Below, piece after piece: positions 30,611-56,481 of a DNA stretch of 64,000 nucleotides. The translations under genes and the position numbers were made by a program. The first letter of the stretch is position 1; each line of letters starts with the position of its first letter. The notes under the pieces were generated by a model. That model was not told the origin of the DNA and searched no databases. It worked only from the letters and a program-made list of their open reading frames with translations. The stretch lies in the IMG/VR virus record IMGVR_UViG_3300045993_000757, positions 11,110 through 75,109 of that record. The stretch is one strand, 5' to 3'. Source of the DNA: a virus.

Positions 30611-30627
30611 CTGGCGAGCTTGACACC

Positions 30628-30646
30628 TTGGACAAATAATGTCCAA
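30628..30646. promoter_or_regulatory. Palindromic site TTGGACA-N5-TGTCCAA (copy 2)
   Basis: Centred between divergent portal and tail genes; TTGACA at 30620. Confidence 0.6.
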
Positions 30647-30690
30647 CCCCCGCTCTTGCGGTTTCGGGCCTGGGAGAGTTCAATCCCCGC

Positions 30691-31782
30691 ATGGCGGCTG
30701 CCCCGATTCTTCCAGGAGATGTTTGTGCGCTTCGAGTCTCCACGACATCGAGTCCATGCGTCAAAGCGACTTCGGCGCAGCAAACCACGAACGCATTGTG
30801 TTCGCTTGTCACCTGGATGATGAATGCGGACGGAACTGTCTCGGATCTTTTCAAGGAATGGGCCGGGACTGGTGGCGGAGGAACGGGTGGAACATCTGAA
30901 CTTGCTGCTCCAAGTGGAGTCACGGCAAGCAGCGACCGAACGACGGACATTAAGGTTCAATGGTCGAGCGTTTCTTCGGCTACGAACTACACAGTCTACC
31001 GAGGAACCAGTTCTGATCCTGCAACCATGTCGATCATCGCCGGGCCGATCACCGAATTGTCTTACTTGGACACGAGCGCGGCATCTCACGTTGGAACTCA
31101 TTATTTCTACTCCATAAAGGCATCAAGCTCCGTTTTGAACAGTGGCTTTTCAGCGGTGGCCGAAGGAGTTGTTCCCACGAGCGCAGGAGGGTCTAGCACG
31201 GTGACAGATTATCAGAATCCAGGAACTCTTAGGACAGTCGTCGTCCCATCGGGTGTTAGCGTAATGGAAATTCAGATTTGGGGAGGTGGTGGTCCCGGTG
31301 GAACGGAACCATCAACCGGCATAGACAGTTGGATTCCGGCGGGGGCTCCACCGTTCCTTTTTGGGGGAGGGGGATCTAGCGGGGCTTTTATTCAGATCAC
31401 AGGAGTTTCGGTTACTGTCGGACATACTTTCATCCTAGACGTGGGTGCGTCCGGAGAATCATCGATGATCTACGATACGACCTTCGGAAGCTCCACCTTC
31501 GCCTACGCTTCGGGGGGGAATTCCGGTGGAAATGCTACCCGGAGTTCAGTTCCGGGATCCGGCGGAGCTTCTCCTGTAACATCTGGAGAAAACTTTCTTG
31601 GATCCGGAACTATGGATACTGTTACCCCAGCCAATCCTGGTACAGATGGAAGTGCTACTGCTGGAATTGGAGGAGCAGCGATTGCCTTTGGTGGTATATC
31701 GGCAGGAGCCGGAGGGAATGGTTCCAAAGGAGGAACCATACTCCCTGGCAAGGCGGGACGCATCAAGGTGATCTTTACGTGA
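30691..31782 (+). CDS. Tail-associated protein with FN3 and Gly-rich domains
   Basis: APSGVTAS..I.VQWSSVSSATNYTVYRG..Y.D...YFYSIKA (FN3); VPSGVSVMEIQIWGGGG (Gly-rich domain). Confidence 0.7.
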   Translation: MAAAPILPGDVCALRVSTTSSPCVKATSAQQTTNALCSLVTWMMNADGTVSDLFKEWAGTGGGGTGGTSELAAPSGVTASSDRTTDIKVQWSSVSSATNYTVYRGTSSDPATMSIIAGPITELSYLDTSAASHVGTHYFYSIKASSSVLNSGFSAVAEGVVPTSAGGSSTVTDYQNPGTLRTVVVPSGVSVMEIQIWGGGGPGGTEPSTGIDSWIPAGAPPFLFGGGGSSGAFIQITGVSVTVGHTFILDVGASGESSMIYDTTFGSSTFAYASGGNSGGNATRSSVPGSGGASPVTSGENFLGSGTMDTVTPANPGTDGSATAGIGGAAIAFGGISAGAGGNGSKGGTILPGKAGRIKVIFT

Positions 31783-33542
31783 GCACCACCGCCATCAAGT
31801 CCGAGAAGCCTTTCCCGTGGCCGAACATGACGGCCCCCATGGACTCGCGATCTCAGCCCGATCGCGTTCCGTGGGGAAGGTGGCGTTACGTTCTGAACTC
31901 GCGCGCGGTCGAGAAGGGCAGAGCTTGCCGCCGCGAAGGATGGCAGCGTTTCGGCCACCAGACAGGACATCCCAACTGCGATCTTCATGACCAGCACGGG
32001 GTCAATCAGCGCATCCATTCAGTCTTCGCGTACAAGTCCCCGGGCCGAACGGACTCCGGGAACCGACTCTACGCCGCTGCCTCCACGGAAATCTGGGAGA
32101 ACCGAGTCGATGGCGGATGGAATAATGTCGGCCATGCCCTCCCGACCGGAGGCGATTGGTGCTTCACGAGCCTCAACGACATCGTCATCGCCGCCAACGG
32201 AACCACGGTTCTCTGGCACCGGGCCGACTTCGAGCCCTTCGCGGAGATCCCATCCCTGGCCACAATCGGGCTGACGGGAGCCGCGGTTTGTTGGACCTAC
32301 GAGGGGGTGATCTTTCTCGCCGACGTGGTCATGGACAACACGGTTGTCGGAAATCGAATCGTGTGGGGTGACCTTGAGTCCATCGAGTTCGAACCCACCA
32401 CCAGCAGCATCGCCGGATTCAAGGACCTCGAACCAGGAGAGCGTGTTCTAGCCGCGGTTCCAACGGGCACGACTTACACCATCTTCACGACGCACGGGGC
32501 ATGGCGCCACGGGGTGGTCGATGGGGAGTTCGTGTTCCAACAGCTCTACCACTCGAAGACCAGGGACGCCTGCGCGGTGGGGAGGCACGCCATCGTTACG
32601 AATCGGGAGATCGCCTACTTCATCGCCACGGACGGCATCTACGCCATGTCCACCTACAGCCCGGCTCCCGAGTGGTCGGAGTGGATGAACCAGGGGCTTC
32701 CCACGAGCTTCCTGGCGGACGGTCATTGCGTGATCAGCGCATCTGGATACGACCCGATCCGAAACGAGGTGCTGTTCAGCTCGGAAGATGCGGGGCTCAC
32801 CTACGTCATCAACACCCGTCAGACATCCACTTCCCTGATCGACCATGCCTTCATCGCCATGACCCAGGCGGACATGGATCGCGGTCAAGATGTGGCTTCG
32901 TGGTGGGTTTCAGCCGGCATCTGCACCGCCGCGGAAGTGGATGCCAAATATCCAGTGGGCCCACGAGACGATCCCAGAATTCACCCCGCCGTCACGGGAA
33001 CCGCGGATGGATGCGCTCCGTTCGATGCTCCATGCGACGATTGCGCGGTGTCACCTGAGTTCGTTTTTGTGTCGGCGGACGACAACACGCTGAAGGTGAT
33101 CGACGAATCGTTTTACGCCCGTGAAATGTGGAACGGAACGGGCTGGGATCTTGAGGGATACCAGACCCGATTCGTGACGGGCAGCGTGAACTGGGGAACC
33201 GACGTCCTCAAGCGGGTGAACAAGGTCACGGTGGACTTCACCGCCCAAGCCACGGACGTTCCCATCGAGGTCCAGCTCGTGGTGGGCACGTCATCGTCCC
33301 CCATCGATCCGATTTCAACCTACCGACCGGCCGCGAGACTGTTGCGCCTCACCAAGCGAAAGCTGGAAACCCCCAAAACCCCCGGGTCCGATTCTCCCCA
33401 CATCCAACCTCTTCAGTGGATTTTCATGGTGGACGCTCGGTTCATCAGTCTCGAAATCAAAACCGAGGTAGTGACGGGGGGCGCTTCCTGCTTCTCGAAT
33501 CTCCTGGCTCATGCCGCCCAAAGCCCCAACAGCGCCACCTGA
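31779..33542 (+). CDS. Tail nozzle/stabilisation protein (P22 gp10/T7 gp12-like beta-propeller)
   Basis: 587 aa beta-rich; NRIVWGD, YFIATDGIY, YDPIRNEV, LKRVNKVTVD pattern; precedes ejection genes. Confidence 0.6.
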   Translation: MSTTAIKSEKPFPWPNMTAPMDSRSQPDRVPWGRWRYVLNSRAVEKGRACRREGWQRFGHQTGHPNCDLHDQHGVNQRIHSVFAYKSPGRTDSGNRLYAAASTEIWENRVDGGWNNVGHALPTGGDWCFTSLNDIVIAANGTTVLWHRADFEPFAEIPSLATIGLTGAAVCWTYEGVIFLADVVMDNTVVGNRIVWGDLESIEFEPTTSSIAGFKDLEPGERVLAAVPTGTTYTIFTTHGAWRHGVVDGEFVFQQLYHSKTRDACAVGRHAIVTNREIAYFIATDGIYAMSTYSPAPEWSEWMNQGLPTSFLADGHCVISASGYDPIRNEVLFSSEDAGLTYVINTRQTSTSLIDHAFIAMTQADMDRGQDVASWWVSAGICTAAEVDAKYPVGPRDDPRIHPAVTGTADGCAPFDAPCDDCAVSPEFVFVSADDNTLKVIDESFYAREMWNGTGWDLEGYQTRFVTGSVNWGTDVLKRVNKVTVDFTAQATDVPIEVQLVVGTSSSPIDPISTYRPAARLLRLTKRKLETPKTPGSDSPHIQPLQWIFMVDARFISLEIKTEVVTGGASCFSNLLAHAAQSPNSAT

Positions 33543-34228
33543 TGCCATCCCTGAATTCACCAGCTCTGAGCGCATCGCCGACCACGGCTCCTCGCCCACC
33601 GTCTCTTGCCGACCTGTACACCGACAATGTTTCGGGAGGTCTAACGAGCGTGTTCCAGGCATGGGACACCGCTTTTCAGCTCTACGTGGACAATACCAAG
33701 ATCGCGTCCGCTGTGTCCGCAACTCCGCCTCTTATGGGCGGTCCCTTGATGACTCCGTCGCAGATCGACGCCAAGAAAGCATCTGCGATTGGAGCCAGTG
33801 ACCGCGTCCTCGGTTGGGCTCGGCTGTGGTTTCCCAAGGATGATGGGAGTCGATCTTCCTTCGTGGCCTTGAACACATCCGTTTCGGCATCGGGCTGGCC
33901 CATCGCGATTCTCTATGACAGGACGAATCCAAATGGTGTGGTGACCATCCAGTGGAAGCTCGGGAAGGATCATCTTGAATACCTGAAGATCCCCAAGAAC
34001 CGCGTGAACACACCCGGGCTTGATGATCCTCATCTTCGAGTTTGGTTACTCCCCGCATCCCAAGACACGTTGTACGACGTCGTTGTTCGCAACCGAGGGT
34101 TTCGATCCAGCCTGGTGACCTCTCCTACGGGGGCCACCGTCGCCGGGAATTGGGTGTACACCACCTGGCTCGAGGACAAGGCGGGCAAGAACATTCCGAT
34201 CCACTCCATTTACGCCGAACTCATCTGA
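33542..34228 (+). CDS. Hypothetical virion protein
   Basis: TGATG overlap with preceding gene. Confidence 0.55.
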   Translation: MPSLNSPALSASPTTAPRPPSLADLYTDNVSGGLTSVFQAWDTAFQLYVDNTKIASAVSATPPLMGGPLMTPSQIDAKKASAIGASDRVLGWARLWFPKDDGSRSSFVALNTSVSASGWPIAILYDRTNPNGVVTIQWKLGKDHLEYLKIPKNRVNTPGLDDPHLRVWLLPASQDTLYDVVVRNRGFRSSLVTSPTGATVAGNWVYTTWLEDKAGKNIPIHSIYAELI

Positions 34229-34231
34229 CCT

Positions 34232-34957
34232 ATGGCCGCAACATCCTGGACCACGCTGCCGTCCGCATCCAAGAACCCCACCGCCACCGGAGCCGCAGCG
34301 ATCCCCGACTACTTCGGCACCGCGCAGAACTCGCCGGAGCAGATCATCCGGCTGGCCAAGATCCCCGGGGCGGATCCTTCCATCTACCAGCAGTTCCAGG
34401 ATGCCAACACGCTGCGAGACACGATCAACACGCATCTCGGCACCTACTTCGATGCCCTGAGCAAATCCCAACCGTCCTACGACACCGCGGCGCAACAGGA
34501 CCAAACGGAGCTCTCGAACCTTTTCAGCCCCCAGGGATACCAGTCGGATCTGTCCGGTATTCGAGCGCGCCGGACAGCGGCGCTCTCCAATCTTGGCCAG
34601 TACCTCTTTGGAGACCTTCGCCGATCGCTGTCCATGGGACGGGTGGGCGGGGCTGGGGGCGCGGGTCTCTCGTCCTACCTTGCCAGAATGGCCGCGGGTG
34701 AGGCCGGGAAAATTCAAGCGAACCAACTTCTCGATTCCACGACACAGCAACGGACGGACCTCGCTTCCCTCATGGCAGCCCGGCAGGGATCCGTTGGGAA
34801 ATCATCGACGTTGCTCGATTCCAGTCTCAACCGACTGCTTTCTCCGATCGATGTCTCGGCGAAGGCGAACAGTGTCTACGCGAACGCCATCCAGCAGGCG
34901 ATTCAACAGGCGCTCTTGAACTCCATGATGGGCGTCGGAGCCCAGAAAACCCAATGA
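34232..34957 (+). CDS. Putative internal virion/DNA ejection protein
   Basis: Ala/Gln/Ser-rich helical protein in the ejection-gene position. Confidence 0.55.
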   Translation: MAATSWTTLPSASKNPTATGAAAIPDYFGTAQNSPEQIIRLAKIPGADPSIYQQFQDANTLRDTINTHLGTYFDALSKSQPSYDTAAQQDQTELSNLFSPQGYQSDLSGIRARRTAALSNLGQYLFGDLRRSLSMGRVGGAGGAGLSSYLARMAAGEAGKIQANQLLDSTTQQRTDLASLMAARQGSVGKSSTLLDSSLNRLLSPIDVSAKANSVYANAIQQAIQQALLNSMMGVGAQKTQ

Positions 34958-36792
34958 CCGCCATCGAAGCCATGCGCCTTTCCCTGGCGCACAATCTTGG
35001 GTCCGCGCGCAACACTCTCGCGCCCGGACTGGAACTTCCCGCTTACACGACGGGCATGGATCCCAACGTGTGGTCGTCGCGCATCCAGGCGATGAGTTTG
35101 TCCCGGCTTCAGCCGGCGGGGTTCGCGACGTCCCAGTACAAGTTCCAGAATACTCCGGGATCATTCGACTTCGGGGCCCCCACAGTTTCCAACGCGCTCA
35201 TGGTTCCCAAGACGGACCTCGAGAAACAGCAAGCTATCCAGTCGCTCATGTCTGTCATGGCTCCCGCTCCGAGATCCCCATCTGCCGGCGGAAGCTCCGC
35301 GGATTTTGGAAGTGGGACCTGGCTGTTCGGGAATGACTTCGGCGGACTTCAGTCGGCCTTCCTCGCCAGCGCAGCCCAGGACGAGGCGGCGCGAGCGGCC
35401 CGTGTTCGCGAGGCCCAGAACCAGGCTCAACTGAATCTCACGGCCCAAGCCCAGGCCCAGGATCGAGCGATGAGGCAGCAGGCGGCGCAGCAAGCCCTCA
35501 AGCAGTCTGACTTCCAGAACATGATGTCTCTGGCCGGGCTCTCCGAAACGTCTGGCCAGCACACGTTTGAGGATCAGCTCAACCTGATGAAGCTGACCGG
35601 AGCCAACATGGACGCCGAGCAGATGTCGAAGCTGGGCACGGACTCCATCATGGCCCAGTTCGACGCTGCCACGAAGCAGCAGAACGCCACGAGCGGGTTC
35701 AACGATCATGTCCAATCGATGGTCAACGCCTACAACGACGCCACCACCGGGGAGAAGATCGGTTTGACCATGCACAACGGGGTGTTGGTTCCATCGGTCT
35801 CCAAGGGAGACGCGGGCGGTACGAAGCTGATCAGCGACCTGTATTCCAGCCCAGCCTACGCGGCGATCACCGACGCCCAGAACGCGGTGACCAAGGCCCA
35901 GGCGGACTATGCCAAGCTCGCGTTCGTGAAGAAGGCCAGCACGGGGCTCATGCCATCCTCGATGCCCGCCAGTGGCTTACCGGTGAACCCGATCCTCCAG
36001 AACGCCCTCCAGCGGTACGGGGTGAATCTGGGTGGCGTGGCTCCGCGCACGGCAACGGCTGTGGCTTCCTCGGCCAGGAGTGGGGCCACCCCTTTCATCC
36101 TGCAAGATCAAGCGGCGGCTCGTGGGGCGGCGCAGGCGGCATGGAATGCCCAAGGTGTGCCCCCCGCGGCGTGGCAGGATGGCATTGGAGAGCTTCCATT
36201 TGGGGCAAATGTGGCAGCACCCGCAGCTACCCCGAGAACTTATGTTCAATACGTCCCCGGATCCGGAGATCAGATTGCTCCTTCATCCTATGCCACAGGG
36301 GTGACTGGTGCAGGCGGTGGGGGGGACATACGCCTTCCCAATTCCGGCGGATCAACTCCCGGTTCGATTCAGCTTTCGGACGGGACCGTGGTCACCGCCA
36401 CGCCATCTATTCCTTATTCTCCATATAGCCCGGGTTATTCCCCAGGAGTGTCTGGTGCTGGCGGAGGTGGGAACATTCAACTTCCAGTATCGTCATTGAA
36501 TGGGACTTCTGCGGCTTCCATAGAGTGGACGCTTCGACAGGCTTTGGGAGAGTTCCCGGGAACATCGTCTCAACTCGCGCCTATCTCTCCCGAACAGCGC
36601 GCCGCCGCCATCGCCGCCTACCTTCAGGCGGGCGGTGTCCCATGGTGGCCGGGTGGGATGCAGGGGGCCCCGTACCCCGGCCTTTCAAACTCCGCGATTC
36701 TTCCATCCATCGTTCGTCCCGCCGCGCCGATTTCAGGCAATCCGTTCCGATACATTCTTCCGCCCCCTTTGCCGACGTCATTCCGAGGCTGA
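34954..36792 (+). CDS. Putative internal virion/DNA ejection protein
   Basis: Ala/Gln-rich coiled coil followed by Pro/Gly-rich region; directly before giant protein. Confidence 0.55.
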   Translation: MTAIEAMRLSLAHNLGSARNTLAPGLELPAYTTGMDPNVWSSRIQAMSLSRLQPAGFATSQYKFQNTPGSFDFGAPTVSNALMVPKTDLEKQQAIQSLMSVMAPAPRSPSAGGSSADFGSGTWLFGNDFGGLQSAFLASAAQDEAARAARVREAQNQAQLNLTAQAQAQDRAMRQQAAQQALKQSDFQNMMSLAGLSETSGQHTFEDQLNLMKLTGANMDAEQMSKLGTDSIMAQFDAATKQQNATSGFNDHVQSMVNAYNDATTGEKIGLTMHNGVLVPSVSKGDAGGTKLISDLYSSPAYAAITDAQNAVTKAQADYAKLAFVKKASTGLMPSSMPASGLPVNPILQNALQRYGVNLGGVAPRTATAVASSARSGATPFILQDQAAARGAAQAAWNAQGVPPAAWQDGIGELPFGANVAAPAATPRTYVQYVPGSGDQIAPSSYATGVTGAGGGGDIRLPNSGGSTPGSIQLSDGTVVTATPSIPYSPYSPGYSPGVSGAGGGGNIQLPVSSLNGTSAASIEWTLRQALGEFPGTSSQLAPISPEQRAAAIAAYLQAGGVPWWPGGMQGAPYPGLSNSAILPSIVRPAAPISGNPFRYILPPPLPTSFRG

Positions 36793-36795
36793 CCC

Positions 36796-39700
36796 ATGCC
36801 CAAATATCCGCTGACCTTGCCGAACGGACAGTCGTTCGACATCGACTCGCCGAACGAGCTGTCCCAGTCCCAGCTCGCCGAAGCCCAGGGCCAGCTCATG
36901 GCCCAGTTTGGACAGGCCCAGCCCGACCCGACTCCGGTCGCCGAACCGTCGTTGTCCAATAACGCCTTCGATCCGATCGGTGCGGTGCGCGATGCCATTG
37001 GACAGGAACTGCCTCCGCCAGAGTTCGGCGCCATGGATGTCCCTGGGGCGGCAGTTCGATCCACCATGGGTCAACTCGGTCAGGGGATGTTCAAGATCGG
37101 GCTTGGAGCCATGGGTCTGACTACGGGCCCATTGGTTGATGTGCTGACGGGAAACACACCCTTCCAGCAGAACCCAAGCTGGGAAACCCTGGGAGAAACG
37201 CTCAATCCCGCGAAGTCCTACGCCCGGTTTAAGCGCGGCGCCATGGCGCAGAATATAAATGACCTAGCGCGTTCTTCGGTCCCCGTCTGGGAAAGGCAGA
37301 ACGATCCTTCCATCGCCCAGCCCACAGGGTTCACGAAGTCAGCCATCGATTTCACGGGGGGCGTTGCTTCCTCCGTCATCATGTCCCTTCCCGCCATGGT
37401 CACCGGGATCCCCGGGCTCATCGGGATGTCCATGGCCACGTTCGATCCGGCCTTTGAGGAGGCCCAGTCGAAGGGCGCAGGCGACACAAAAGCTTTCGCG
37501 CACGCCGTCCTTTCCACGGCGTTCGAAGCGGGATCCGAATACGTCGGATCGGCCTGGGCCAAGACCGCCCGGATGATGGAAACGATGCCGTACCTACCGC
37601 CGACCGTGCGGAAGTACCTGTTCCAGGCAGAGCGAGGCCCCGTGGAGGATGCCGCCAAGGAAGCTGCCAGGAGTTTCTGGGGGACACTCGTTGGCACAGC
37701 CAGCAGGAAGGACGGGATCCACCTCGGCACCGCGACGATGGAAGGGCTGGAGGAAGTCTTCAGCACCGTGGCCCAGCGCATGAGCGCGGCCATGCTCTAC
37801 GACCCGACCCAGATCACGAACATCGGCGACCTGATGATGGACGCCGGGATGTCGTTCCTGGGCGGTGCCGCGGCGGGTGTGGCCTTCACCCCGCTGGAGC
37901 GCCGTGTCGCGCGCCAGAAGGTCGGCGAGGCGATGCGGAGCGGTGTCTTCGAGCAGTACCGCACGGCCCTGGAAGCCGCCAAGAAGGACGGCGCGTACCG
38001 ACCTGAGGACCAGAAGGTCGTCAACGAGGCGGTCACCGGCCGTCGCCTGATGGAGCTTGGGGCTCTCTGGGGCAACACCGACATGGTGGCCAAGGGGAAG
38101 GAACAGCTCGCCGCCGCCACCACGCCCGAAATGGCAGCCGCCACGGAGGCGGAGGTGAAGAAGGCCGCGGAAATGTTCCACGCCGTCCAGACCCCGGAAG
38201 GAGCGGCGACGGCTCACAAGCTGGCGGTCGATCAGTTCGGTGCGGACAGTCCCCAGGCGAAGAAGATGGCCGAGCTAGTGAATCAGGCCAACGAGCACCG
38301 GCTGGACATCGCCCGTGCCCAGGCCGTGCAAACCTCCGGCCCCGGCATGAAGTCGGAGGAGTGGGCCAAAGTCGTCACCCAGGAAGGTCTTTCGCCTGAC
38401 CGCGTCGAGCTGCACGCCAGCCAGGGATTCCGCGACAACGAGACGGGTCTTCCCACCGAAAATCCCAAGGATTCCCAGGGCCGTCCCAATCAGGAGCAGG
38501 AAGGCTACGTCGATCCGCAGACCGGCAAGATCCACATTTACCAGGGGTCCATCCTGGGCGACATCAACGCCGGCCGGGGATCCCGCCGCGTCCGCCAGCG
38601 TGAGCACTTCCGCCAGGTGTTGCGGGAGGAGGCCGCGCACACGGCGCTTCAAACGCCCCTGGGCCGGAGCCGCCTCAACGCCTACGTCGAGCACCTTAAG
38701 GCGAACGACTCGAAGGCCTACCAGGCGATCGTGGACACGCTGGCAAGGCAAGGATACCACCCCGACATCATCCCCGAGGAGTACGTCGCCAAGCTCTACC
38801 GGCAGCAGTCCTGGTTCCAGCAGAAGGTCGATGACTTCATGCTGGCCCTGCACCGTTGGACCGGCATCGGGAAGCTGAATCACGTTCGCGCCGGACGCTT
38901 GCTGATCCGCAGTCTCGTGGAGCATTCCCGGCAGGGGAACCTTCGCGGGAACGCCGGCGCTTTCCAGCCTGCCAACGCCGCCGCCGATGTCCGCCAGCAG
39001 GAGTCGCGGCTGGACATGGCCAGGATCCGCGCCCTGAACACGGAGGAGGCCAAGGTCATCGCGTCCGGACACGCCGCGATACTGACCCAGCCCCAGCTAG
39101 AGCAGGCGATCCGCGACCTGACGACGCGCTTGGAACTCATGAACCGCCAGGGGATCGGCGGCATGGTCAAGCTGGAGACGGAGCGCGTCCTGAAAGCGGC
39201 CAAGGACGAGTTTGTGGCCCGCGAGAACGTCCGGCGTCAGGCCATCCTGAACCAAGCGACCGCGCCCGTGCAGCCGCCGACGCCCAACACGCCCCAGGGC
39301 GGCACGGCACCTTTCGTTCCGGTCATCGACCAGCAACCCCCGACACCACCCCCCAATGCCCCTGATCAACAGCAGCAGCAAACAGGCAGTCAGCCAGAAC
39401 ATCCGAACGGAAATGAAGGCGGGCAAGCCCCAGAAGCAGGCAATAGCAATAGCCCTGGCAGTCCAGCGGAGAGCGGAGCAGAAGCGCCGAATCCGGAAGA
39501 AAGCAAGGTAGCCAGCTACGTTCCGCCGGAGAACCCCGGCCACATTGCTGCCGACCTTTCGACCAAGGTTCAGCAGGGGGATTTGACGCGCGACGAAGGA
39601 ACCGCGCTGTCGATCAAGTTTGGGGTCCAGGGCGAGTTCGATCAGTTCATGGCCCTGATCGACAAGGTCGCCGCCCGCGAGGCTTCTGGAGAGGCTCAGG

Positions 39701-42700
39701 CGGAACGCGAGGCGCGCAAGGCCAAGATCGACAACATCGTCTCCCGGCTGCTCGTGGGCGATGAGGTGGACGGTGGCATTCTGGAGTCCATCGAACCCAG
39801 GGCGGAAGACGACCACTGGTTCGTGGTCCGTCACCCCGGAGGAACGACATCCGCATCCAACGTCCCGCCGATCATCGGCAAGATGTTCGACCCGGCCTGG
39901 GTCCAGTCCATTGAGTCCCGGAAGCTCACGCGCGAGAAGGTGCTGAAGGCGGAGGAGCTGAAGAAGAAGATCAAGGGCAAGGAGAAGCCCCAGGATGCTC
40001 GGGAACAGGCGGCGGCAGAGGCTCGTGCCAAGAAGGAGGCGTTCGAGCGCGCCGAGGCTGAACGCAAGGCCAAGGAAAAGGCGGACCAGGATGCGGCCCG
40101 CAACGAGTTCGAGTCGGCTTTCCAGCAGGCGAAGGCCCTGGCTCCTGGCGACAAGGTTGGAAAACGAGTCGTCCAATCCAACAACACCGAGACCACGGAC
40201 ATCCAGTTCGAGGGCGAGAACACCCCCGAGGACTACGAGAACGTCGCCGTCTTCATCATGGACGGAAACGACGTGGTGAAGGCTTCAACGCCACCGCCGG
40301 CCGCAGGCAAGACGTTCAAGGTGGGCGACCGAGTTCAGTGGATGGACGGGAAGATCACAAGGACTGGCGTCGTCCGTGAGCAAACCGCCATCGGGGTATC
40401 AGTCAACGACGATGACTCGGGCAGGAACTACCTGCTGGCTTCGAGTGACTTGACTGAACTCAGTAAGCCCGTTTCGGACCAACCCCAAGCCCCCGCGATC
40501 ATCGAGGCGTGGAAGAAGGGGAAGCGAGAACTGGCCCAGCAACTCGCCGATCGACTGCCCGAACCCGGTGACACATGGGCGTTCCGGACTTCCGACACCG
40601 GAAACCTGGCTGGGTATGGTGCCGGGGATTCCACCTTCACCCGAGACCTGACGGTGCGTGGCAAGCCTCTGTGGCAATGGATCAACGAGGCCCAGGCAGA
40701 TACCCTTCCGAAACCCGGATCCAACGCCCAGGAGAACAAGCCGGCCGCAGGGATCACCGCGGACAACCTGCACAAGCAGAACCTCCGGATGTTCACGGGC
40801 ATCCTGAAGCCCATCATCGAACGTGTCCGAGGAATCTTCGATCGCCTTGAACGGGGGAAGAAAGTCTCCCAAGATGACCATTCGTTCCTCAGTCGGTACA
40901 GGGCTTTTGCCACCGAGAAAGTTAGGTCTCTGAATGAGGGGTTTGGGGATGTCCCCGCGGAGAGCATCGCTCAGAAGTACACCGATGACTTCGAGGGCAT
41001 TGCCTTGGCCCGAGATTACACCAAGGCCCAACTGGAGGTGGAAAAGAGGCACCTCACCAAGTTTGGGCAACTGTTTCCGACGGGATCCGAAACAGGGAAC
41101 ATCATCTCAGGACTTCTGGGCCGCGTCATGGAAGCGATCAATCGCCATGATGGTGTCCCGATTCCTCGCCTCGCATCCAAGATTCCCAAACGTCCTATCC
41201 GCAAGCCCTCGACCCGCGAGCGTGCCCCCGACCTGATCGACCTCCTGATCGACACCGTGGGGAAGATCGACCCCAAGCTGATCAAGGAGGCCAATCCAGA
41301 CTTCAAGCCCACGGGCGCGGCCCGCCTGCTGTTCAGCCCCAAGGGAACTCCAGCCGACCAGGCCATGCACGCCGTGGTGGGACAGATGGGCGTCACGGCC
41401 GACATGAGCATCGACCAGTTCGCCGAGGCGATAACGGCGGCTGCCAATGGCAGGAAGGCCACACGCAAGGGCTGGGCGGCGGAAGGGGCCCAAAACGACG
41501 CGGATGCCAAGCGCGCCCTGGCGTTCCATGCGTTCCTGGATAAAGAACGCCCGTCAGGTCTTAGCGTCTCCGAGTTGAAGATGGGCGACAGCTTCACGGT
41601 GGACGGAGATCCTTTCTCCGTCATCGGGGTGGAGTACGGCGAGGATGGAGGGCCTTTCTCGGTTACCCTGGACGGCGGGAAGAAGTGGGGGACCCAGGTT
41701 GTCGATGGGAAGAAACCAGTCACGGTTGATGACGGAAGCTTCGCGGGCGTGAACGGCCCCATTGAGCCGGAGACCAGCAAGCTCCCGTCCGAAATCGCGG
41801 ACGAGATTCGTCGAGTGGTTGGATTCATCCAGGAGGTCAGGAACTACCTCAATTCCCAGCTTCAGTGGAAAGACAATCACAGCCGCTTTGTCGTGGAGGA
41901 ATACCTCAAGGACAACGCTCAGGCCATCGAAGCCGCTCAGAAGACCATTCAGGAATTCAGAGACGTTGCTCCGACTCACAACATCGACGCCGAGCTCGTC
42001 ATCGAGGAACTCGGCGGAGTTCCTGACATCACGCTTCCCCCTGAAAAACCTGCGGGCATCCCAGGCTTCTTCGACGCCATCGAGTCCGACGAGGACCGGA
42101 TCGCCCGCGAGCGCAACGAGGCCGAGCAACGCCGCGCCAAGGCCGACGCCGACAAGCTCCGCGACCTGGCCAACAAGCCGCTCAAGGGAACTGCTGGCGA
42201 CCTGGGGCAGGGGGCCCTGTTTGCGGAACCCGGCGACCAGGACTTGTTCGCCCCGCCGCCGGCCGACGTTCAGCCCAAGCGCAAGGCCATGGACGCGATC
42301 CAGGCCAAGGTGGACGCCCAGGACGCCACCAAGCGCGCCAAGATCGAGGAGCTGAAGAAGCGGCTGAAGCCGAACATGGGCGGAGAAGACATCACGCCGT
42401 TCTCCCTCAAGGAGCTTTCTCCCCAGACCAAGAACGACCTGATCGAACTGTCGGGGCTCTACCTGAGCAGCGACATCGTCTCCTTCGCCGAGTTCTCAAC
42501 CAAGCTCATCGACGACTTCGGGGACAGCGTTCGTCCCTGGCTCCAATTCGCCTATGAAAGCTCTCGGTTCTCTCCTGGTGCGACTTACAAGGGATCAATG
42601 GACCCGGCTGATTGGGTCGAACAACTCGCCAAAAAATATGACTCAGGTGCCACTCCGGATCTGGAATCAGATCGCTTCCGAACAACAGGACAACCTGGAC

Positions 42701-45700
42701 CCGATCGCGGTCCAACTGTTCAGCCTGAAAACCTCGGACCAGCTCAACCTGGTGATCGACCTGTGGCACCAGGAGATTCGCAAGCTGACACCGGAACCCC
42801 TGGTGGCGTCAGCGATCGTGGCGATTCTACCACTGATGCGCGCCCAGCGGGCGGTGAACGCCTTCCTGAGCCAGCGGCCAGCCCTGTCGTGGAACGTCCG
42901 GCAAGCCATCCCGGAACTCAACGGCCTGGACGAAGCGGTGGAACTGGGCGTGCTCGAGTATCGGCTGCGGCGCAATCAGACCTTGGATCTCCGGAAGCTC
43001 CTGTCGTCGCCCCAGACGTGGCAACTCCTCCGCCCGATTTTGGAGCGTACCCCAGCGACAACCCCGTCGCCGACCAAGCCGACGCCAACGCCCGATCCTA
43101 CCCCTGGCTCTCCGCCGATCCCGGCAACATAGAGAGCACGCTTCCGATGCTGTTCCCCAGCCAGCGGAAGAACGTCTTCCTGGCGGAGCGGCGGTTCGCG
43201 GAGACCCCGGTGGCAGCCACGCACGCCTCGGGCACCGGCCTGGGCGATCCCAAGCGCGGGATCCTGTTCACCGATGGCACCGGCACCGGCAAGACCTACT
43301 CCGGGGCAGGCATCGTCAAACGCTTCCTCATGCAGGGGAAGACGCGGATCCTCATCGCGGTCCCGAACGCCAACATCATCGAGGCGTGGAAGTCGGCGAT
43401 GAAGGACTTGGAGATCCCGCACTTCGTCCTTCCCGACACCAGCACCGCCGCCAAGGGCGTCACGCTGACCACCCAGGCGAACCTCCGAAACAACGCCGAG
43501 CTCGCCAAGCAGGACTTCGACCTGGTGGTCATCGACGAGTCTCACAACCTCCTGTCCAACGAGGCGGGTGAGGCGAACGCGGGTCTTCGGTCCTTCCGGA
43601 TGGTGGCCAACCACCCCGACAGCGTGGAGCGAAAGGCCACGAATGCCATCATCGGGCCTGCCCCGGTCCAGGCGGACTACGCAGGCGGAGGTGATTTCGC
43701 GGCTGCCCTTCACCAGTGGGACCAAAAGCGCATCGACAACATGGCGAAGATCAGCGCCGAGGTGAAGCGGATCAACGAACTGAACACCAAGGCGCTCTTT
43801 CTTTCAGCTACGCCATTCGCCTACCACACCTCGCTCATCATGGGCGACGGGTTCCTCTACTCCCTGCCCGACGACAGTCAGCGAACCGGATACAATCAGC
43901 CCAAGGGATTCGACCGGTTCCTCGCCGAGAACCTGGGATGGCGGATGCGAACTGGGAAGCTGAACAAGCCCAGCGCAAACGTGGACACTTCGGTCATGGA
44001 GATCCAACTCCACGACCTGTTCGCCAAGCGCGGGGCCATGCACGGCGTCTCGCTCGATGTTCCCCAGGACTACAGCCGGGAGTTCGTCCTGGTCCGACCG
44101 GCCGCAGCGCAGAAACTCGATGATGGGTTCTCGTTCTTCCGTGGCGGCGAGTCGTACCAGCAGCAGTACCCGATCCTCAATAAGGTCTTCAACGAGCTCT
44201 GGGACTACAACCACGTCGCCCAACTCCTCGAAGCATTGAAGATGGACTCTGCCATCGAACGCATCCGCCAGCACGTTGCCATGGGCAGGAAGGTCATCCT
44301 GCTCCACAGCTACCTGAAGGCGAAGATCCATGCCCACCCCTTCCGGTTCGAGACCTACCCGCCGGAATTCCTGATGGCTTTCAACGGGGCGGATCTCAAG
44401 GCTGAGATGGACCGTTTCCGGAACGATCATGCCGAGTGGGCCAACATCGTCATGCCCGACTCTGAGCTTTCGTTGGAGAAGATCCGCCGCGAGTTCGGAG
44501 ACTCCGTGGTCTTCAACAACGGCAAGGAGGCCCCCCGAAGTCGTGTCGAGGCGGTGATCGACTTCAACCGCGACGGTGGCGGCGTGAATCTCCTGGTCGG
44601 TCAGCTTCAGGCGACCAAGGAAGGCGTCTCGCTCCACGACAAGAGCGGGAAGCACCAGCGCGTCATGATGATGGTCGCGCTGCCCATCCGACCCACCGAT
44701 GCCATCCAGGCCGAGGGTCGCGGTTACCGGATCGGAGTGAAGACCGACGCCATCAACGAGTACATCGTGCTCCACACGATGATGGAGCGGTTCGCCTTCG
44801 CCTCGAAGATCAACGAGCGCGCGGACACCGTGGAAACCCTGGCCCTGGGATCGGACAGTCGAAACCTTCGCGACCGATTCCGCGACGGCTACCTCAATGC
44901 CATCGACGCGGATCCCAACGACCAGCAGGGCAAGGGAAGCAAGGAGGCCGACCGCCGCGCCGAGACGATGTCGGACTTCGACCGGGCCGTGTCCTTCTAC
45001 TTCGCCCGCACGAAGAAGAACTCCCGGACCAAGAGCGCCGAGGGGCTGGACTACTACCCCACGCCGGAGCCGCTGGGGCTCAAGATGGTGGAATGGGCTG
45101 ACCCAAGCGCCGGGGACGCCCTGCTGGAGCCTTCCGCCGGCCACGGGGCCATCGGCCAGTGGTTCCCCAACATCGGCCAGCACGCCTACCTGGAACCCTC
45201 CGCCGAGCTTCGCAGCGAGCTGGGAATCAAGGTGAAGGCGGGGACCGTCTACTCGACGACGTTCGAGGACTACCACATCACGAACAAGTTCGACGAGATC
45301 GTGATGAACCCGCCGTTTGGTCGGGCGGGGGCCACGGCGTTCGCGCACCTCGCCAAAGCTTTCCGACATCTGGTAATGGGCGGGCGTATCGTCGCCCTGG
45401 TTCCCGATGGGGCCAACACGAACGACAAGATCGTCGAACTCCTAAGGGCCGGGAATGATCCCACGGGGCACTATGACGGCCGAGTGTTGCGGGCGGACAT
45501 ATCGCTTCCTTCGTCCGTGTTTGAACGGGCCGGGACCAGCGTTCGGACTCGCCTGCTGATCTTCGATACGCCGACCTATTCCGATCTCCACTCCGGCCAC
45601 CGGATCGGAGAAGGGCTTGAGAACCTGTTCCCGCCCACGTTCACGACCAAGATCGAGGCCAACACCATCCAGGAGTTGTTCGACCAGATCCGCGACCTGG

Positions 45701-48700
45701 ACGTTCCGGCGCGAATCCGGAAGCCCAAGCCCGCCCCAAGCAATCCGCTGACCACACGGGACGCCATCATCCAGACGACATCCCAGGGCCCCGGCGTCGT
45801 TCCCACCCGCCAGCAGTCCACCACACCCCAGCTTCCTCCGTTGTTCAAGCTGGGTCAGACGACGCACGCGAAGAAGGGGATCCAGTTGTTCGTCGCCACG
45901 CTGACCAAGAGCTTGAGCGATGCGAACTTCTCCGTAGTCAACCGGATCGCCAAGAAGCACGACGGATACTACTCGGGGTACAACAAGGCCAACGCGATCC
46001 CAGGATTCCAGTTCGACGCCGCGGATCAACGAGACGATTTCGTCGCCGAGGTTGAGCGGGCACTCCGACCTCCCGACGAATCCACTCCGACCTACTCCCT
46101 GAAGGCGCGCGATCCGTTTGAGGTCAACGACATCACGCGCACCCGCGGGGCCATCATGGCTTCCATCGGAGTGCCGCACGTCGCGGATGCCATGACGATG
46201 ACCCCCGACGAGTTCGCCGCCGGGAAACATCCGACTGTCCTGGGGTTCTCTGGCAAGTCTCTATGGCAAGCCATCAACAGCGGGGATCCCACCCTTTCGG
46301 CGTTGCTCCGTTCGCCCGCCTATTCGCTCAAGGTCCGTCCGGTGCAGTCGGACCTGTTCGACCGGGAGACGACGCGGAGCATCGCCCAAGCCTACACCTC
46401 GGCGGGAACGTCGCTGCCGAACAACCGCCCCGCCCTGTTCTCGGTGATCGACAACGGGGACGGGTGGAAGGCGCAGAGTCGAAACATCGACTTCGGGGCC
46501 GGGAAGTCCTTGTGGATGGACGACGCCCTCAAGAGCCGGGGCGTGGAGAACCTTCGGTACGATCCATTCAACGAGGCCTCCGCCGTCAATGAGGCCACCG
46601 TCGATTCAGCTCTCCGCGCCCCGGCCGACACCTTGACCGTCGCCAACGTGCTCAACGTGGTCGCGCCGGAGGCTGCGTTGGATGAGACCATCCGTCAAAC
46701 CGCCCGCCTGCTGAAGCCGGACGGCAAGGCGTACTTCTGGGTCCACTTCGAGAACGGCAAGAAGTCCGGCGTTCCCCGCGGTCGCCCCGACTCCTGGCAA
46801 TGGCACCATAAGGCCGAGTGGTACGTCCCACACCTGAGCCGCTTCTACGGAAAGGTCGAGACCATCGGCCAGAACATGATCGTGGCCTCGCAGCCGATCC
46901 CCGTGGTGGGCGAATGGTCGCCGTCCGCGGAAGGGCCCACGTTCAGCCTCAAGCCGCGCGCCTACGACCTCACGCCGAACGGTGGGAATCCCATGGTGCC
47001 GCGCATCGGCTACCTCACCGGGAAGCACAGCGCCAAGATCCTCGCTCGCGCCCAGGCCCGCGGGGACATCGGGGCCCTGATTACGCCGACATCGTCGCAC
47101 TCATTGGACACGGCCCGGTCCTACCCGTTCTACGCCGTGGACAATGGCGTGTTCGGTAAGGCCGGGTTCAACGAGCCCAAGTTCAACGCCCTCCTGAACA
47201 AGATCCAACCGGGCGATCCCAAGGTCTTGTTCGTCGTGGCCCCCGATGTCCTGGCCCACCTTCCCAATGGCCAGGTGGTCGGGGATGCCGCGGCGACCAT
47301 CGAGCGGTTCAAGGATTGGGGCCCTCGGATCCGGGAGCGCGGTCTTCCCGTGGCTTTCGTGGCCCAGGACGGGCTGGAGGATCGGTTCAACGACATCCCA
47401 TGGGACGGTATGGACGTGCTGTTCATCGGCGGGTCCACGGGCTGGAAGCTGGGCGAGTTCGCCGATCCGGAGCGCCGGCGGCGGTGGGAGTATGTGATGG
47501 GCGAGGCGCACAACCGCGGCATCCCGATTCACATGGGGAGGGTGAACTCCAACGAGCGCCTGACGGGCCACGCCGTGGACATGGCTGCGTCCACCGCGGA
47601 CGGGACCCTCCTGGCGTTCGGGGAGGACATCAACTTGCCCAGGCTCGAATCATGGCTGGATCAGTTGAACCACGGGGGGCTGTCTTACGCGGCTCGGAAC
47701 ATGACGGAGTTGGGAAGATTGCCCACGAGGCGGGAGATTATCGACTTGGCCAGTGATCGGAATCTTGCCTATGAAACCCTCGGGGCATTTGAGCCCGCCC
47801 TGGACGAGATCAACGCCACGCGCAACGAACTTGGGCTGCCCCCAATCGCACCCCGCCAGTTCGATCCGGGCCAAGCTGAGTTCGGTTTCTCGCTGAAAAA
47901 GCCAGTCCGGATGTTCCGCAGCTACGCCGAGTTGGAAACGGGGGCTCTCCAGTTCGAGTCCTGGCGCGACTGGTACTCGGCCGACAAGGCGAACATAGAC
48001 TCTATGTTCGGTAAGGATGCCCCGCTGTTCGCACAGGTTCTCGCTGCCACGTCCATCCAGACTGAGGTTCCCGATAATGTCGGTCGAGCCTTGCGCGCCT
48101 ACATTGAGATGATTCAGGGAGCGCCATTCACTGGTCAGATCCCATCGGCTAGGGTCAATTTGGAGCGAATCCGGGATGGAGAGTCGATCCGTGGCCCCAA
48201 GATAGAACCTTTTGCTCGGGCCATCATGGGCGATGAAAGCGCGATCGCTGTTGACAGGCACGTCATCCGCGCGATCTTCGGCGAGGACGCGGTCGCTACT
48301 CCGGCACTCATAAGAAAGGCACAAGATGTCATTCGCAAGATTGCGGCGAAACACGGGTGGACTCCTCGGCAAACCCAGGCCGCAGTCTGGGCTTGGAAAA
48401 TCAATCTCAACGGGAAAACCCCCCAACGATACCTCGACTCCCTCACTCCCGATCGCTTCGCTAGCACAATCCGTGGATCAGGAGTTGAAGGACTCGTTCG
48501 ATCGCGCACGAATTTTGGACAGGGAACTCAAGCAGGCGTTGGGACCGGGGCGGCAGACACCGGATCCGGAGTTCAAACGGGAAATGAAACCCCCGCTTAC
48601 AGCCTAAAGACCCCGCCCGATCACCGGCCGCTCGCGGAGGACATCAACGCTTTCCGCACCGAGTTCCCCACGGCCCCGCCGATCGTCGTCAACCAGGACG

Positions 48701-51700
48701 ATGCCGCGCGCGGGGCCCGGTTCGAGAATGGCGAGATCGTGGTCGCTGAGACCATGATGCCCAGCAGCCGCACCGGTCGCCGGGCGGAACTCCTGGCGGC
48801 TCTCTCAGACGCCGGTCGGCTGAACATTCCCCAGGGATTCTGGGATCGAAGCTGGAAGGGTCTTGTCGCGGCTTCCCCCGTCCTCATCGAGGAGACACGC
48901 AAGTCCATTGGCGGGAACATCGACACCCAAGAAGGCCGCAATGCCATCCTGGCTGAGTTGGTGAAGCGGACATCAAAGTCCTCCGCCCCCGTGGGATTCG
49001 TGCGTTCGGCCCTGGCGTTCTTCCGTGGCCTCGACCAGACGAAGACCCCGGCCTACATCATCGCGGCCATGCAGCGGACGCTGGACCGGGTGACCGACCA
49101 GTTCACGCCACACCAGGCGGGGCCGCAGGGCGAGGCGGACTTCGGACCCACCGACACGCTCCACCAGTACATCGGCGGTCTCAACCGCGACGGATCACAG
49201 CGGGCGAGTGGCGTTCAGGAACAGGTCTTCGCCGACCAACACTTCGCCCTTTGGAACTCCTTCGAGCCTGAGCTTTCCCGCATGGAGGCGCGGCTCTCCG
49301 ATCTTCAGACGGGGCTCCTGGAGGACCACCAGTTCGAGAGTGTCCGCCAGCGGATGCAGCAGATCGCCGACACGGTCCTGGCAACGAACATTGCGAACCA
49401 CCGGCGCGCGGCCCTGAACATCGCCGCCGATGACTTCATCGACCAAGTCCAGGAGGTGAATCCTGACCTCCTCACCCGCGAGGACATCGAGAACCACAGC
49501 ATCTATCTCAACGAGGTGAAGGCCCGGCGAGCCATGTCGCTCATGCAGAACATCGAGCGGAACAAGGCGACTCGCGATTACCTGACGGACAACCTGCCCC
49601 AGTACCCGATTCAAACCCTGAACCGCCGCATCTCCCGGCAGCAGATCCGCCTGTCTGACATCGAGCAGAACCACCCCGAAATGTACGCTCGTGCCTCCGA
49701 GTTGAAGTCGCGGGTGGAAGGCGATCCCGCGGCCCGCGCCGCCGCCGATGCCATTTCCGACCCGGCCATCCAGGAGTGGGTCGAGGTCATCCATCAGATC
49801 CGCGAGAGCGGGACCCAGCCGCGCGCCCTGGCAGCCATGCCGGTGGCCATCCAGAATTCCGCCGCCGTCGCCGCCGGGGTGTTCCAGTACAAGGCCAGGG
49901 CCATGCGGCGGGAGCTGGGGGATCGCCTGGTTCGAACGACCGACACCGCCCTTCGCGCCCTCAACAAGCTCGTCGAGGAACGGCGCAATTCCCGGCAGAA
50001 GGAAGGTCAGATCGAAGTCGCCATGGTGGAGATGATCCAGGCGGCACGCGGGGACGCCGGGGCCAGCGGTGGCCTCTACACCCTGGAGGAAGCCAAGCGG
50101 ATGCGGGACATCGGGGACCGCGCCATCGCCCGGTTTGCTCGATTCCTGGGGGCTTCAGATCCCGGAACGCTGCCGGCTGAGCTTCGGGATGCCTTCATCG
50201 AGGACAACCTGATGTCCATCGGGATCGACCCGGCGACCCTGAGCGGGCCCAACTCGTTCGATCTCGACCGGATCGCCACCGATGCCGGGATCTCGCGGGA
50301 AGCCTTCCTTCAGATCATGGAACTGGCGCGCACCTCGCGCCCCTTCCAGAACATGGTGGTCGCCCTGGCCGACGAGGCCGACGAGCGCGCTGAGACCAGC
50401 ATCCTCAACGCCATCCAGCGGCTCCAACGGGTCCGCAACGAAGTCCTGAGCCGCCCCAGGGATCCGGTGGACACCACCGGCCTGACCCCCAAGGAGGCGC
50501 GCATCGCCATCGCCCGATCCGAACGTGCCATCATCCGGCAGGCGAACCAGGAGGCGCTGCTCTCCGCGGCCCCGTTCCTGCGCTCCCTGAAGCAGCAGAC
50601 CCTCGAACTCAAGCAGTCGAACCGGTCGATGGACACGCAGATCGAGCGGTTGGAACGCGAGCTTCAGACGATCCAGAACCTCTCCGACATGGCCAACGCC
50701 GTGGACGGAGCGGCCCACGAGCTGGCCCCCGACAACTTCGGGGTGGCCGAGATGGTCTACCAGACTTCGGACGGCGTCTTCATGGCGGAGTTCCTGACGG
50801 CGGAAGGAACCCAGCCCGGCGTCCGGGTCAGCCCTGGCGAGGAGTATTCGGCCGAGAAGATCATGGAGATCATCCTCTATCGGGACGCGGCCCTGCGCGC
50901 CATCGCTGCCAACGTGAACCCGCCGGAGATCACGCGCGGCTTGGAAGTCGCCGTGGACATGGTCCTCCCGCTGATCGACGCCAACTCGACCCCCGGATCC
51001 ATCGGAAAGACCCTGTCCCCGAACGGCCTGTCCGAACAGTGGACGAAGTATCCCATGGGCGTTCGAGCCGCGATGCCCCGCTTGATCCCCGGCATTTCCG
51101 GCCGGCGACTGGCGGAATCCATGGCCACCTACGCCCGTGTCGGAAGCAAGGTCACCGCCATCCTCAACAAGTACCACGCCCGCCGCGTCCAGTTGCTCAA
51201 GGCGGCGATGGACTCGATGAACCTGTCGCCCACGGACGAACTGGCGCGGTCCTCGTTCCGGCAGGTTTACAGCGAGGTGGCCCATCGCCTGCGCGAACAC
51301 GGATCCAACGTGGCTCCTGGCGATCAGACGTTCTCCGGAAATCACGGATCCATCGTGACCCCGGAGCTGATCACCCTCCTCCGGTACGACCGTGAAATCT
51401 TCAGGGCCGTCCAGGACATCGTGGAAAGCCTGCCCTACGGCGGCATCCGCGAGTCCATCCCCGGCATGGATGTCCGCCTCATTCGCCCCTCGGCCGAGAC
51501 CGGCGACGTGGGCCTGGCCCGGTCAGTGAACAAGGACTTCGAAGTCCCCCTGGCTCGCGCCTATTCCGCCGCAGTCACCCTGGCGACGAACCAGCAGAAG
51601 GTCACCGGACAGAACGTGATCCCCGACATCACCGCGTTCTGGGACATGAATCCGCACCACATCCTGTTCCACATCCTGGACGCTGGGCGGAACGACCTGG

Positions 51701-54594: not shown

Positions 54595-54640
54595 GTCTAA
54601 ACCCCATTTCGCCCAGGCCTAGATCAGGCATCCTCCAAGG

Positions 54641-55066
54641 ATGGCAATCCAACTTTTGGGCACGAATCAACTGATCCCGCTTACCGTCAAATTCACAACC
54701 CTCGCCGGCAGTCCGTCGAGCGTTGAAGGGGCCCCGACATGGGCCAGTTCCGACGAATCCATCCTGACCCTCGATGTCGCCGCGGACGGAATGAGCGCGA
54801 CGGCGATTGCGGTCGGAGTGGTCGGATCCGCCACCGTCACTGTCACGGCCGACAGCGACTTGACCGACGAGGTGAAACAGATCTCCGGATCGCAGGATTT
54901 TTCTGTCATCGAACCCACCGAACTGGCCGCGGTGGTCACCATCGTCCCTGGCACCCCCGAGAATAAGCCCCAGATCGTCACCCAGGCCCAGGTCGCCCGA
55001 GCTCCTCAGGCCAACAAGGGTCGTGCTGTGAATTCCCAGACTTCCGGCTACGCCGGCCAAAAGTGA
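54641..55066 (+). CDS. Ig-like domain protein (decoration candidate)
   Basis: PTWASSDESILTL..DG.SA..AVG.VGSATVTVTAD. Confidence 0.6.
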   Translation: MAIQLLGTNQLIPLTVKFTTLAGSPSSVEGAPTWASSDESILTLDVAADGMSATAIAVGVVGSATVTVTADSDLTDEVKQISGSQDFSVIEPTELAAVVTIVPGTPENKPQIVTQAQVARAPQANKGRAVNSQTSGYAGQK

Positions 55067-55230
55067 AGCTGACCCTGGACATCGATCCCAAGCTGGCCTT
55101 GCCAAATGGCTCGAAGGCCAGGGTTTGCATCTGCCTCGAAATCGAGATCGAGGTGAAGCGCGACCACCCCCGCAACGACGTGGCGGCGGTGGTTAAGATC
55201 ATCCCCGGAAAGCCGGTCGAGAAGCCATGA
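55063..55230 (+). CDS. 55-aa hypothetical protein (not in ORF track)
   Basis: GTGA and ATGA overlaps on both sides; C-terminus AAVVKIIPGKPVEKP. Confidence 0.65.
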   Translation: MKLTLDIDPKLALPNGSKARVCICLEIEIEVKRDHPRNDVAAVVKIIPGKPVEKP

Positions 55231-55445
55231 TTGCCTCTGCCATCAGCGCCAGCAGCCTCGTCAACGTGATCATCTGGATCATTGTGGCGGGGCTGATCTT
55301 CTGGTTGTTGACCTGGCTGGTGGACTACTGTGGCGTCCCAGAGCCTTTCCGGAAAGTTGCCAAGGTCGTGATTGCGGTGGTTGCCGTTCTGATGTTGATC
55401 AATGCGATCCTGACTTTGGCGGGCTCTCCGCTCGTCACCTGGTAG
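55227..55445 (+). CDS. Two-TM small membrane protein (Thivi_2564-like, holin candidate)
   Basis: IIVAGLIFWL...VPEPFRKVAKVVIAVVAVLMLI. Confidence 0.7.
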   Translation: MIASAISASSLVNVIIWIIVAGLIFWLLTWLVDYCGVPEPFRKVAKVVIAVVAVLMLINAILTLAGSPLVTW

Positions 55446-55619
55446 CGTGCGCCCATGCGGTCGCCCTGAGGGTCTTATTGTTTCCCCTTCTGGGCGGCTA
55501 CTCCTCTCCTGCCGCGCATGGAAGCCAGTTAGGGTGGACCCCCGGATCCACCGTAAGACGGGTGGTTTGATGGTGGGTGGGAGGGATTCATCCCTCCTGC
55601 CCGCCAGCATGTGATGGGT

Positions 55620-56444: not shown

Positions 56445-56481
56445 GGACAGGCAGATGGCTCAAAACTATAACGAACTTCGC

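Follow-up and report, generated by a model that had tools for sequence, protein, structure and literature searches.

In phage lambda and many other phages, Rz1 is a complete gene contained within Rz on the same strand and in the +1 frame, the two being carried on one mRNA in a conserved layout (PMC5295617), and embedded spanins have likewise been noted for Serratia phage Parlo (PMC6606913). Overprinted viral gene pairs (PMC8227390, PMC3494269) include same-strand overlaps of more than 100 codons in which an ordered product is paired with a disordered one, the composition of the overlap is skewed and the 'synonymous' rates are lowered in both frames. Very large proteins with a helicase and N6-methyltransferase core are specified by phage P1 (DarB), by the Bcep22-like phages and by Parlo, the last having a 3,764 amino acid protein of this type (PMC6606913); beside its helicase-methylase unit P1 encodes a small protein of approximately 15 kDa, Ulx, annotated as 'Ulx-like anti-restriction'. 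The locus described here resembles all of these. It lies in a 64,000-nucleotide stretch of viral DNA (hereafter, the window) from IMG/VR record IMGVR_UViG_3300045993_000757, in which a giant open reading frame (ORF) of the DarB-like type contains a second, complete gene at 42638–43132 on the plus strand and in the +1 frame. With a probability of roughly 85%, we regard this as a true dual-coding region, in which a small protein is made separately from the +1 frame and the giant frame provides a linker of the giant protein. The embedded gene is real, conserved and unannotated, and its kind is already known, namely that of the out-of-frame embedded phage genes.

The embedded gene was studied through the ORF list, a frame plot, homology searches, structure prediction with AlphaFold2 (AF2) and the pattern of substitutions. 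It begins with an ATG at 42638 and ends with a TAG at 43130–43132, the +1 frame being open from 42554, which is 28 codons before the ATG. Its 164 codons plus TAG specify a product of approximately 18 kDa. It is, in other words, an ORF that is complete from start to stop and contained in a longer one of the same strand but another frame. An earlier sequence-only reading of the window had placed a 164-codon ORF at exactly these coordinates, had described its GC content at third codon positions (GC3) as typical of the genome, and had located it directly before a helicase-methylase module, all of which was borne out: GC1, GC2 and GC3 of the nested gene are 0.66, 0.46 and 0.79, the last against a genome reference of 0.79–0.82, and the ORF ends 3 codons upstream of the helicase start. 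From approximately 42600 to 43050 the GC3 of the giant frame is 0.28–0.46 as compared to 0.8–0.95 elsewhere, and the GC content of main-frame position 1, which is position 3 of the nested gene, reaches 0.82; main-frame position 3 corresponds to nested position 2. Across the overlap main-frame GC3 is 0.46 versus 0.82 in the flanks, and this is the strongest frame switch anywhere in the giant ORF. Two other features of the sequence-only reading stood in part. The A-rich leader is present as a run of six adenines (A6) at 42631–42636, but is not conserved in the closest relative, the Joint Genome Institute (JGI) metagenome contig L002. The product does contain its own FSLK (residues 28–31), but F28 (86%) is the one residue of the four that the family conserves, so that the likeness to the (Y/F)SLK motifs of the main frame looks coincidental.

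When 1.84 billion representative proteins were searched exhaustively with HMMER, residues 1–135 of the nested product serving as query, 74 clusters were returned at E<=1e-3, mostly of 120–160 amino acids. The nested product is thereby a full-length member of an unnamed family with a length of approximately 125 residues. In nearly all of these, residue 1 of the match aligns with residue 1 of the query, i.e. the family starts at the same methionine. The conserved motifs are M-x-Q-V-P-x-x-I-W-N-x-I-A at the N-terminus, P-L-L-x-E-x-x-A-I, L-R-x-A-L-P-E and E-Y-R-L; most members are acidic (median pI 5.2), and those that are named in their sources are 'hypothetical protein'. With an alignment of 63 sequences, AF2 predicted an all-alpha fold of ten helices for the nested product, at a mean predicted local distance difference test score (pLDDT) of 96.4 and a predicted template modelling score (pTM) of 0.88. 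The helices discerned in the sequence-only reading are among them (33–48, 97–108 and 112–123). Some metagenomic proteins carry the same domain as part of a longer chain. In P0053 it is fused in frame with the polyvalent-protein domain marked by the motif G-D-x-V-R-P-W-L (E 4e-5), and in P0069 and P0074 (318–557 residues) it is N-terminal, and behind it stand one or two copies of an acidic domain that has no name and bears the motif W-E-E-Y-x-x-Q-x-Q-x-x-E-S; Pfam, NCBIfam and PADLOC gave no match for it. The identity of the embedded protein with TnpV (PF14198) was also considered and rejected, since neither the whole genome nor the records of five relatives gave a match at E<=10; as judged from these profile searches, the protein belongs to another family.

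Family members were then used as tblastn queries against 50,697 phage records and against plasmids. Matches were found in six phages, Pseudomonas phage Skulduggery, Serratia phage Parlo, Klebsiella phage vB_KpnP_ZX1, Vibrio phages 1.232.O and D274 and Ruegeria phage 45A6, and in one replicon of Comamonas thiooxydans. In all seven annotated records the match lies under a single annotated giant coding sequence of approximately 3,200–3,900 codons, at an offset of 3n+1 from its start. These giant genes are named 'DarB-like antirestriction', 'PLxRFG protein', 'N-6 adenine-specific DNA methylase', 'LPD38 domain-containing protein' or 'hypothetical protein', and the small gene is annotated in none of the seven. 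The same nesting occurs in contig L002 and in six of seven loci from metagenome-assembled genomes (MAGs), assigned to Gammaproteobacteria, Roseateles, Terrimonas, Devosia, Azospira and Helicobacteraceae. In 15 loci, with GC contents down to 36%, the nested frame is open for 119–164 codons, and 14 of them have no main-frame stop anywhere in the overlap. In those loci whose main frame was followed beyond the end of the nested gene, the nested stop falls from a few to approximately 25 codons before L-P-L-L-x-P-x-Q, the opening of the helicase module, and in each of the first eight loci checked it precedes this motif. The upstream neighbour is more variable, the G-D-x-V-R-P-W-L helical domain preceding the nested gene in 7 of 14 loci. 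Given 74 homologous clusters and the same layout in 14 further loci, the embedded ORF is far beyond chance.

This distribution also bears on the quality of the sequence. Two compensating indels, through sequencing or assembly error, could have shifted a normal in-frame domain into the +1 frame, as the sequence-only reading had proposed as its alternative; a homopolymer (the A6 run) does stand at the 5′ switch point, and P0053 has the small domain in frame with a polyvalent-protein domain. The proposal is refuted by independent data, and its probability is negligible. Logan contigs from other samples and studies cover 42300–42784, 42830–42980 and 42956–43400 with 0 differences and 0 gaps, so that no indel merging the frames exists at 42630 or at 43050; 14 other loci keep both frames; and the two-frame layout recurs in genomes sequenced to completion, those of six cultured phages and of a plasmid.

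In a Desulfamplus MAG (L012, contig JADFZJ010000049.1) the small gene is free-standing and has an AAAGGA Shine-Dalgarno site. Since both this copy and the in-frame fused domains exist, the small-protein family is, on comparative grounds, older than the nesting. At this locus (L012:414–1500) the gene is situated 414 nucleotides from the contig end, beside a MazF/PemK-like and MazE/AbrB-like pair which is followed by maf and yggS; it may be the remnant of a degraded element.

The region from which translation of the embedded gene would start (42613–42662, plus strand; positions -25 to +24 around the ATG, including the A6 run) is weakly structured. Its minimum free energy is -6.9 kcal/mol as compared with a locus mean of -12.5 (92nd percentile), and in 13 of 14 loci the 50 nucleotides around the ATG are among the least structured of the locus (mean percentile 89). 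All six cultured phages have GAGG, AAGGA or AAGGAG 8–12 nucleotides upstream of the nested ATG, and Shine-Dalgarno-like sites were likewise seen in the Comamonas plasmid and in several MAG loci, including L009 and L016. No sigma-70-like promoter or intrinsic terminator was recognised in 41800–43400, and for this reason the small gene is probably read from the mRNA of the giant gene. The A6 run just before the ATG, together with the 28 open codons upstream of it, would also be compatible with programmed +1 frameshifting or transcriptional slippage, which would yield a truncated giant protein having the small domain as an alternative C-terminus. The relatives make this improbable in the extreme, as no frameshift site is preserved among them: the A-run is absent from the closest one, a +1-frame stop is found 0–4 codons before the ATG in Parlo, ZX1, both Vibrio phages and L016, and the methionine and N-terminal motif are conserved and are also where free-standing homologs begin. 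Independent internal initiation is favoured over frameshifting because of the Shine-Dalgarno sites and near upstream +1 stops of the relatives, the unstructured start and the lack of conservation of the A6 run. The sequence-only reading had also held that the +1 protein is separately translated, and its case is strengthened by the homology from the same methionine, the predicted fold, the Shine-Dalgarno-like sites of the relatives, the unstructured start and the substitution pattern described below.

Over the same bases the giant frame reads as a linker. When the main-frame translation of 42400–43299 was submitted to AF2, residues 80–236, which correspond to 42637–43107 on the plus strand, gave pLDDT values of 31–40 and no secondary structure. 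This stretch is stop-free, is rich in P, G, R and D, as had been read from the sequence, and is predicted to be disordered. Its conserved motifs are shadows of those of the nested protein; nested IWNxIA, for example, reads DLExDR in the giant frame.

In an effort to define the selection acting on the two frames, recoding simulations were undertaken in which the nested protein was kept fixed, its codons were redrawn from local codon usage and the probability of a stop-free giant frame was computed. This was 0.015–0.021 in the window, 0.015–0.018 in L002, 0.017 in Skulduggery, 0.0002 in Parlo, 0.006 in ZX1, <0.0002 in both Vibrio phages, 0.026 in the Ruegeria phage and 0.003 in the Comamonas plasmid. 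It was <0.0002 also in the Terrimonas and Helicobacteraceae MAGs, where 7.5 and 12.6 stops, respectively, were expected. In pairwise comparisons the third positions of the giant frame are the slowest sites in the overlap (binomial P 2e-4 to 3e-15 versus flank third positions) and those of the nested frame likewise change less than third positions in the flanks (P 3e-4 to 0.08); closer pairs were used here, the comparison of codon positions between the window and L002 being too saturated to separate the frames. Both tests, simulation and substitution, thus find the two frames kept by selection across relatives. They indicate that the nested frame is under purifying selection at the protein level and carries the stronger constraint, and that the giant frame is kept open by selection, being constrained mainly to stay open and, weakly, in its sequence.

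The same comparisons speak to the view that no protein is made today from the +1 ORF, which would be a relic that has fallen silent or a mere product of the composition of the linker. In the low-GC Vibrio phages the nested GC3 is 0.68, above the genome-typical 0.40, and since this is raised by the amino acid composition of the main frame, 'genome-typical codons' are by themselves no proof of a gene. The substitution pattern nevertheless follows the nested frame, and between Parlo and Skulduggery the nested protein is the better conserved, at 59% as compared with 43% for the flanking giant protein. Together with a frame that stays open in all 15 loci, even at the lowest GC content, and an AF2 model with a pLDDT of 96, this leaves the relic with scarcely any probability.

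A number of observations weigh against dual coding, and some of them would be better accommodated if the giant ORF were not one functional protein at all and comprised three genes, a large one upstream, the small one and a helicase-methylase gene downstream, the open main frame being a functionless, tolerated read-through. In the three highest-GC MAG loci the openness of the main frame is not significant (P 0.10–0.17), and as the loci share descent the tests made on each of them are not fully independent. In L013, L010 and L014 either the end or the beginning of the long frame lies closer to the nested gene, and in the latter two the frame is shorter, so that fusion of the halves is not universal. 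The disorder of the linker and the derivation of its motifs from those of the nested protein would fit such an arrangement as well. It is nonetheless improbable, though less so than the other alternatives, for 14 of 15 loci retain a main frame without stops, by chance to be expected with P 0–0.026 in eight loci and with P <2e-4 in low-GC MAGs, nested third positions are slower than those of the flanks, and a 5,906 amino acid homolog is also continuous. Two points concern expression: no recognisable Shine-Dalgarno site precedes the ATG in the window or in L002, other genes of the window phage also being without one, and among public RNA runs none matched the stretch. The remainder concern function. 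The family, its fused relatives included, has no match in Pfam, PHROGs, NCBIfam or PADLOC; a search of the PDB by sequence gave nothing below E 0.03; the best Foldseek hits had E-values of 0.95 (PDB) and 1.5 (BFVD); and the best Z of a wide VIA-align search, 4.6, is at the noise level for helical models. Twenty family members examined singly had no Pfam match at E<=0.1, the ESM Atlas gave no usable match for the embedded protein, and no relatives were recovered from IMG/VR, whether it was scanned with the nested protein, with the main-frame segment beside it or with a family alignment.

In the Terrimonas locus (L013:3001–3386) the long frame covers the whole nested gene and stops 26 nucleotides past the nested stop, at the end of the contig; the helicase part may be a separate gene in this lineage.

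According to the dual-coding model, one mRNA would encode both a giant virion-type polyvalent protein and a complete small +1 gene located in the linker before the superfamily 2 (SF2) helicase/methyltransferase module. Ribosomes starting at the internal ATG at 42638 would make the 164-residue, ten-helix protein, and from the same bases those translating the giant ORF would make a disordered tether rich in P, G, R and D, the sequence of which would largely be dictated by the small gene. This layout may have arisen by the fusion of formerly separate large genes through read-through of a small intervening gene, which is the simplest history given that the small protein is predicted to be structured, that its family is also free-standing and that the overlapping giant frame is a disordered tether. 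There is one firm clue to function, the position of the nested gene just before the helicase-methylase unit. The sequence-only reading had proposed that the small protein may be a regulator, chaperone or immunity protein for the neighbouring enzymatic domain, for which this fixed position is the support. By analogy with Rz1/Rz and with the small accessory proteins of the P1 Dar system, it could work with the adjacent module, helping in assembly or packaging, for instance, or acting as its regulator; our best guess is a partner of the helicase-methylase unit or of the virion assembly of the giant protein. A bolder, combined proposal, that the embedded protein is an obligatory partner of DarB-like helicase-methylases (a packaging or assembly adaptor, or a brake by which the enzyme stays inactive in the producing cell) and that the disordered linkers of polyvalent proteins systematically hide accessory genes, is put forward tentatively and is more likely to be wrong than right.

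The window corresponds to bases 11110–75109 of a 75,109-bp record which has direct terminal repeats and an estimated completeness that is full, and near-identical DNA is present in pond, wetland and river metagenomes. The giant host ORF (36796–54594, plus strand; 5,932 amino acids), examined through the ORF list, Pfam and PHROG, contains ResIII (SF2 helicase; residues 2152–2256), Methyltransf_23 and DUF7178 domains, and matches phrog_10089 ('DarB-like antirestriction') and phrog_10691. Its closest giant homolog, P0003, is the continuous protein of 5,906 amino acids referred to above and shows 44% identity. It thus joins an SF2 helicase and a DNA methyltransferase in one very large multi-domain protein, and because of its helicase, methyltransferase and DUF7178 domains and its PHROG matches the host gene is classified, by domain content, as a giant polyvalent protein of the P1 DarB/Bcep22 type. 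In the main frame the embedded gene is preceded on the same strand by a helical domain with the motif G-D-x-V-R-P-W-L-x-x-x-Y (42436–42558) and is followed, after a gap of 3 codons, by the start of the SF2 helicase module (43141–43563, plus strand), which was defined by domain searches and alignment and opens with L-P-x-L-F-P-x-Q-R, ahead of the P-loop GTGTGKT and ResIII. At 43262–43298 the contig depth rises 20- to 60-fold in three of four metagenome runs and approximately 2-fold in the fourth, and many short unrelated contigs match this segment at approximately 86–89% identity (4–6 differences per 32–46 bases). The jump in depth reflects the coding stretch for the helicase P-loop (GTGTGKT), common to many organisms, and is not a phage repeat. 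The ten long ORFs flanking the giant gene (28346–36792 and 54600–59950) had no PHROG match at E<=1e-5; from its gene content, the phage is distant from the characterised groups.

A second embedded ORF of 51 codons was noted at 39356–39511, also in the +1 frame of the giant ORF, where a weaker frame switch (39196–39615) marks its position. Its product is basic and contains the motif G-K-P-Q-K-Q-A-I-A-I-A-L. No Pfam match was found, and tblastn revealed homologs in 471 phage records, mostly annotated as free-standing small genes, e.g. Bcep781 gp02. This is probably a second real embedded gene of the giant ORF, and its free-standing homologs fit the same history of fusion as does the gene at 42638–43132.

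No description of the embedded gene was found in the literature searched, although it may have been published elsewhere; the Parlo announcement reports the 3,764-residue DarB homolog and embedded spanins, and no gene inside the DarB homolog (PMC6606913). The gene adds a conserved, well-folded and unannotated family to phages that are studied for therapy and ecology (Skulduggery, Parlo, vB_KpnP_ZX1, the two Vibrio phages and the Ruegeria phage). Long out-of-frame embedded genes kept across phages of such different hosts are rare, and as gene callers forbid them the class is systematically missed. Its fixed position before the helicase-methylase unit offers a handle on the assembly or control of the giant DarB-like anti-restriction proteins, and the placing of a structured protein inside a disordered one lends itself, as an uncluttered example from nature, to the study of two frames in a single sequence and of the growth of giant polyvalent genes by the capture of neighbouring ones. 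Should the wider proposal be true, dual coding would couple synthesis of the small protein to that of the giant one, the linker genes of phage and plasmid polyvalent proteins would have been created by fusion through small intervening genes, and current phage annotation would be missing a whole class of genes, of which this giant ORF alone would hold at least two.

The comparison with the systems described at the outset shows differences as well as likenesses. Rz1 is a lipoprotein of approximately 60 residues encoded within a gene of approximately 150 codons, and Rz1 and Rz form one complex. The embedded product described here is, in contrast, a predicted soluble, helical protein of 120–164 residues which lies in the disordered linker of an enzyme gene of 3,000–6,000 codons, and its family is unrelated. 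In P1, Ulx is similarly small and encoded next to the helicase-methylase unit; its gene, however, is downstream of darB and is not overlapped by it. Comparison of the 63-sequence family profile with Ulx using hhalign gave a probability of 0.13% over 9 aligned columns, and identity with Ulx was rejected. A packaging or anti-restriction role by likeness to Ulx is only an analogy. The overlap itself, with its length, skewed composition, slowed third positions and pairing of an ordered with a disordered product, is like that of the overprinted viral pairs. In textbook overprinting the novel frame usually specifies a small accessory protein, whereas here the small-protein family is the older one and is also free-standing (in Desulfamplus), and it is the large protein's linker that seems to be the overprinted newcomer.

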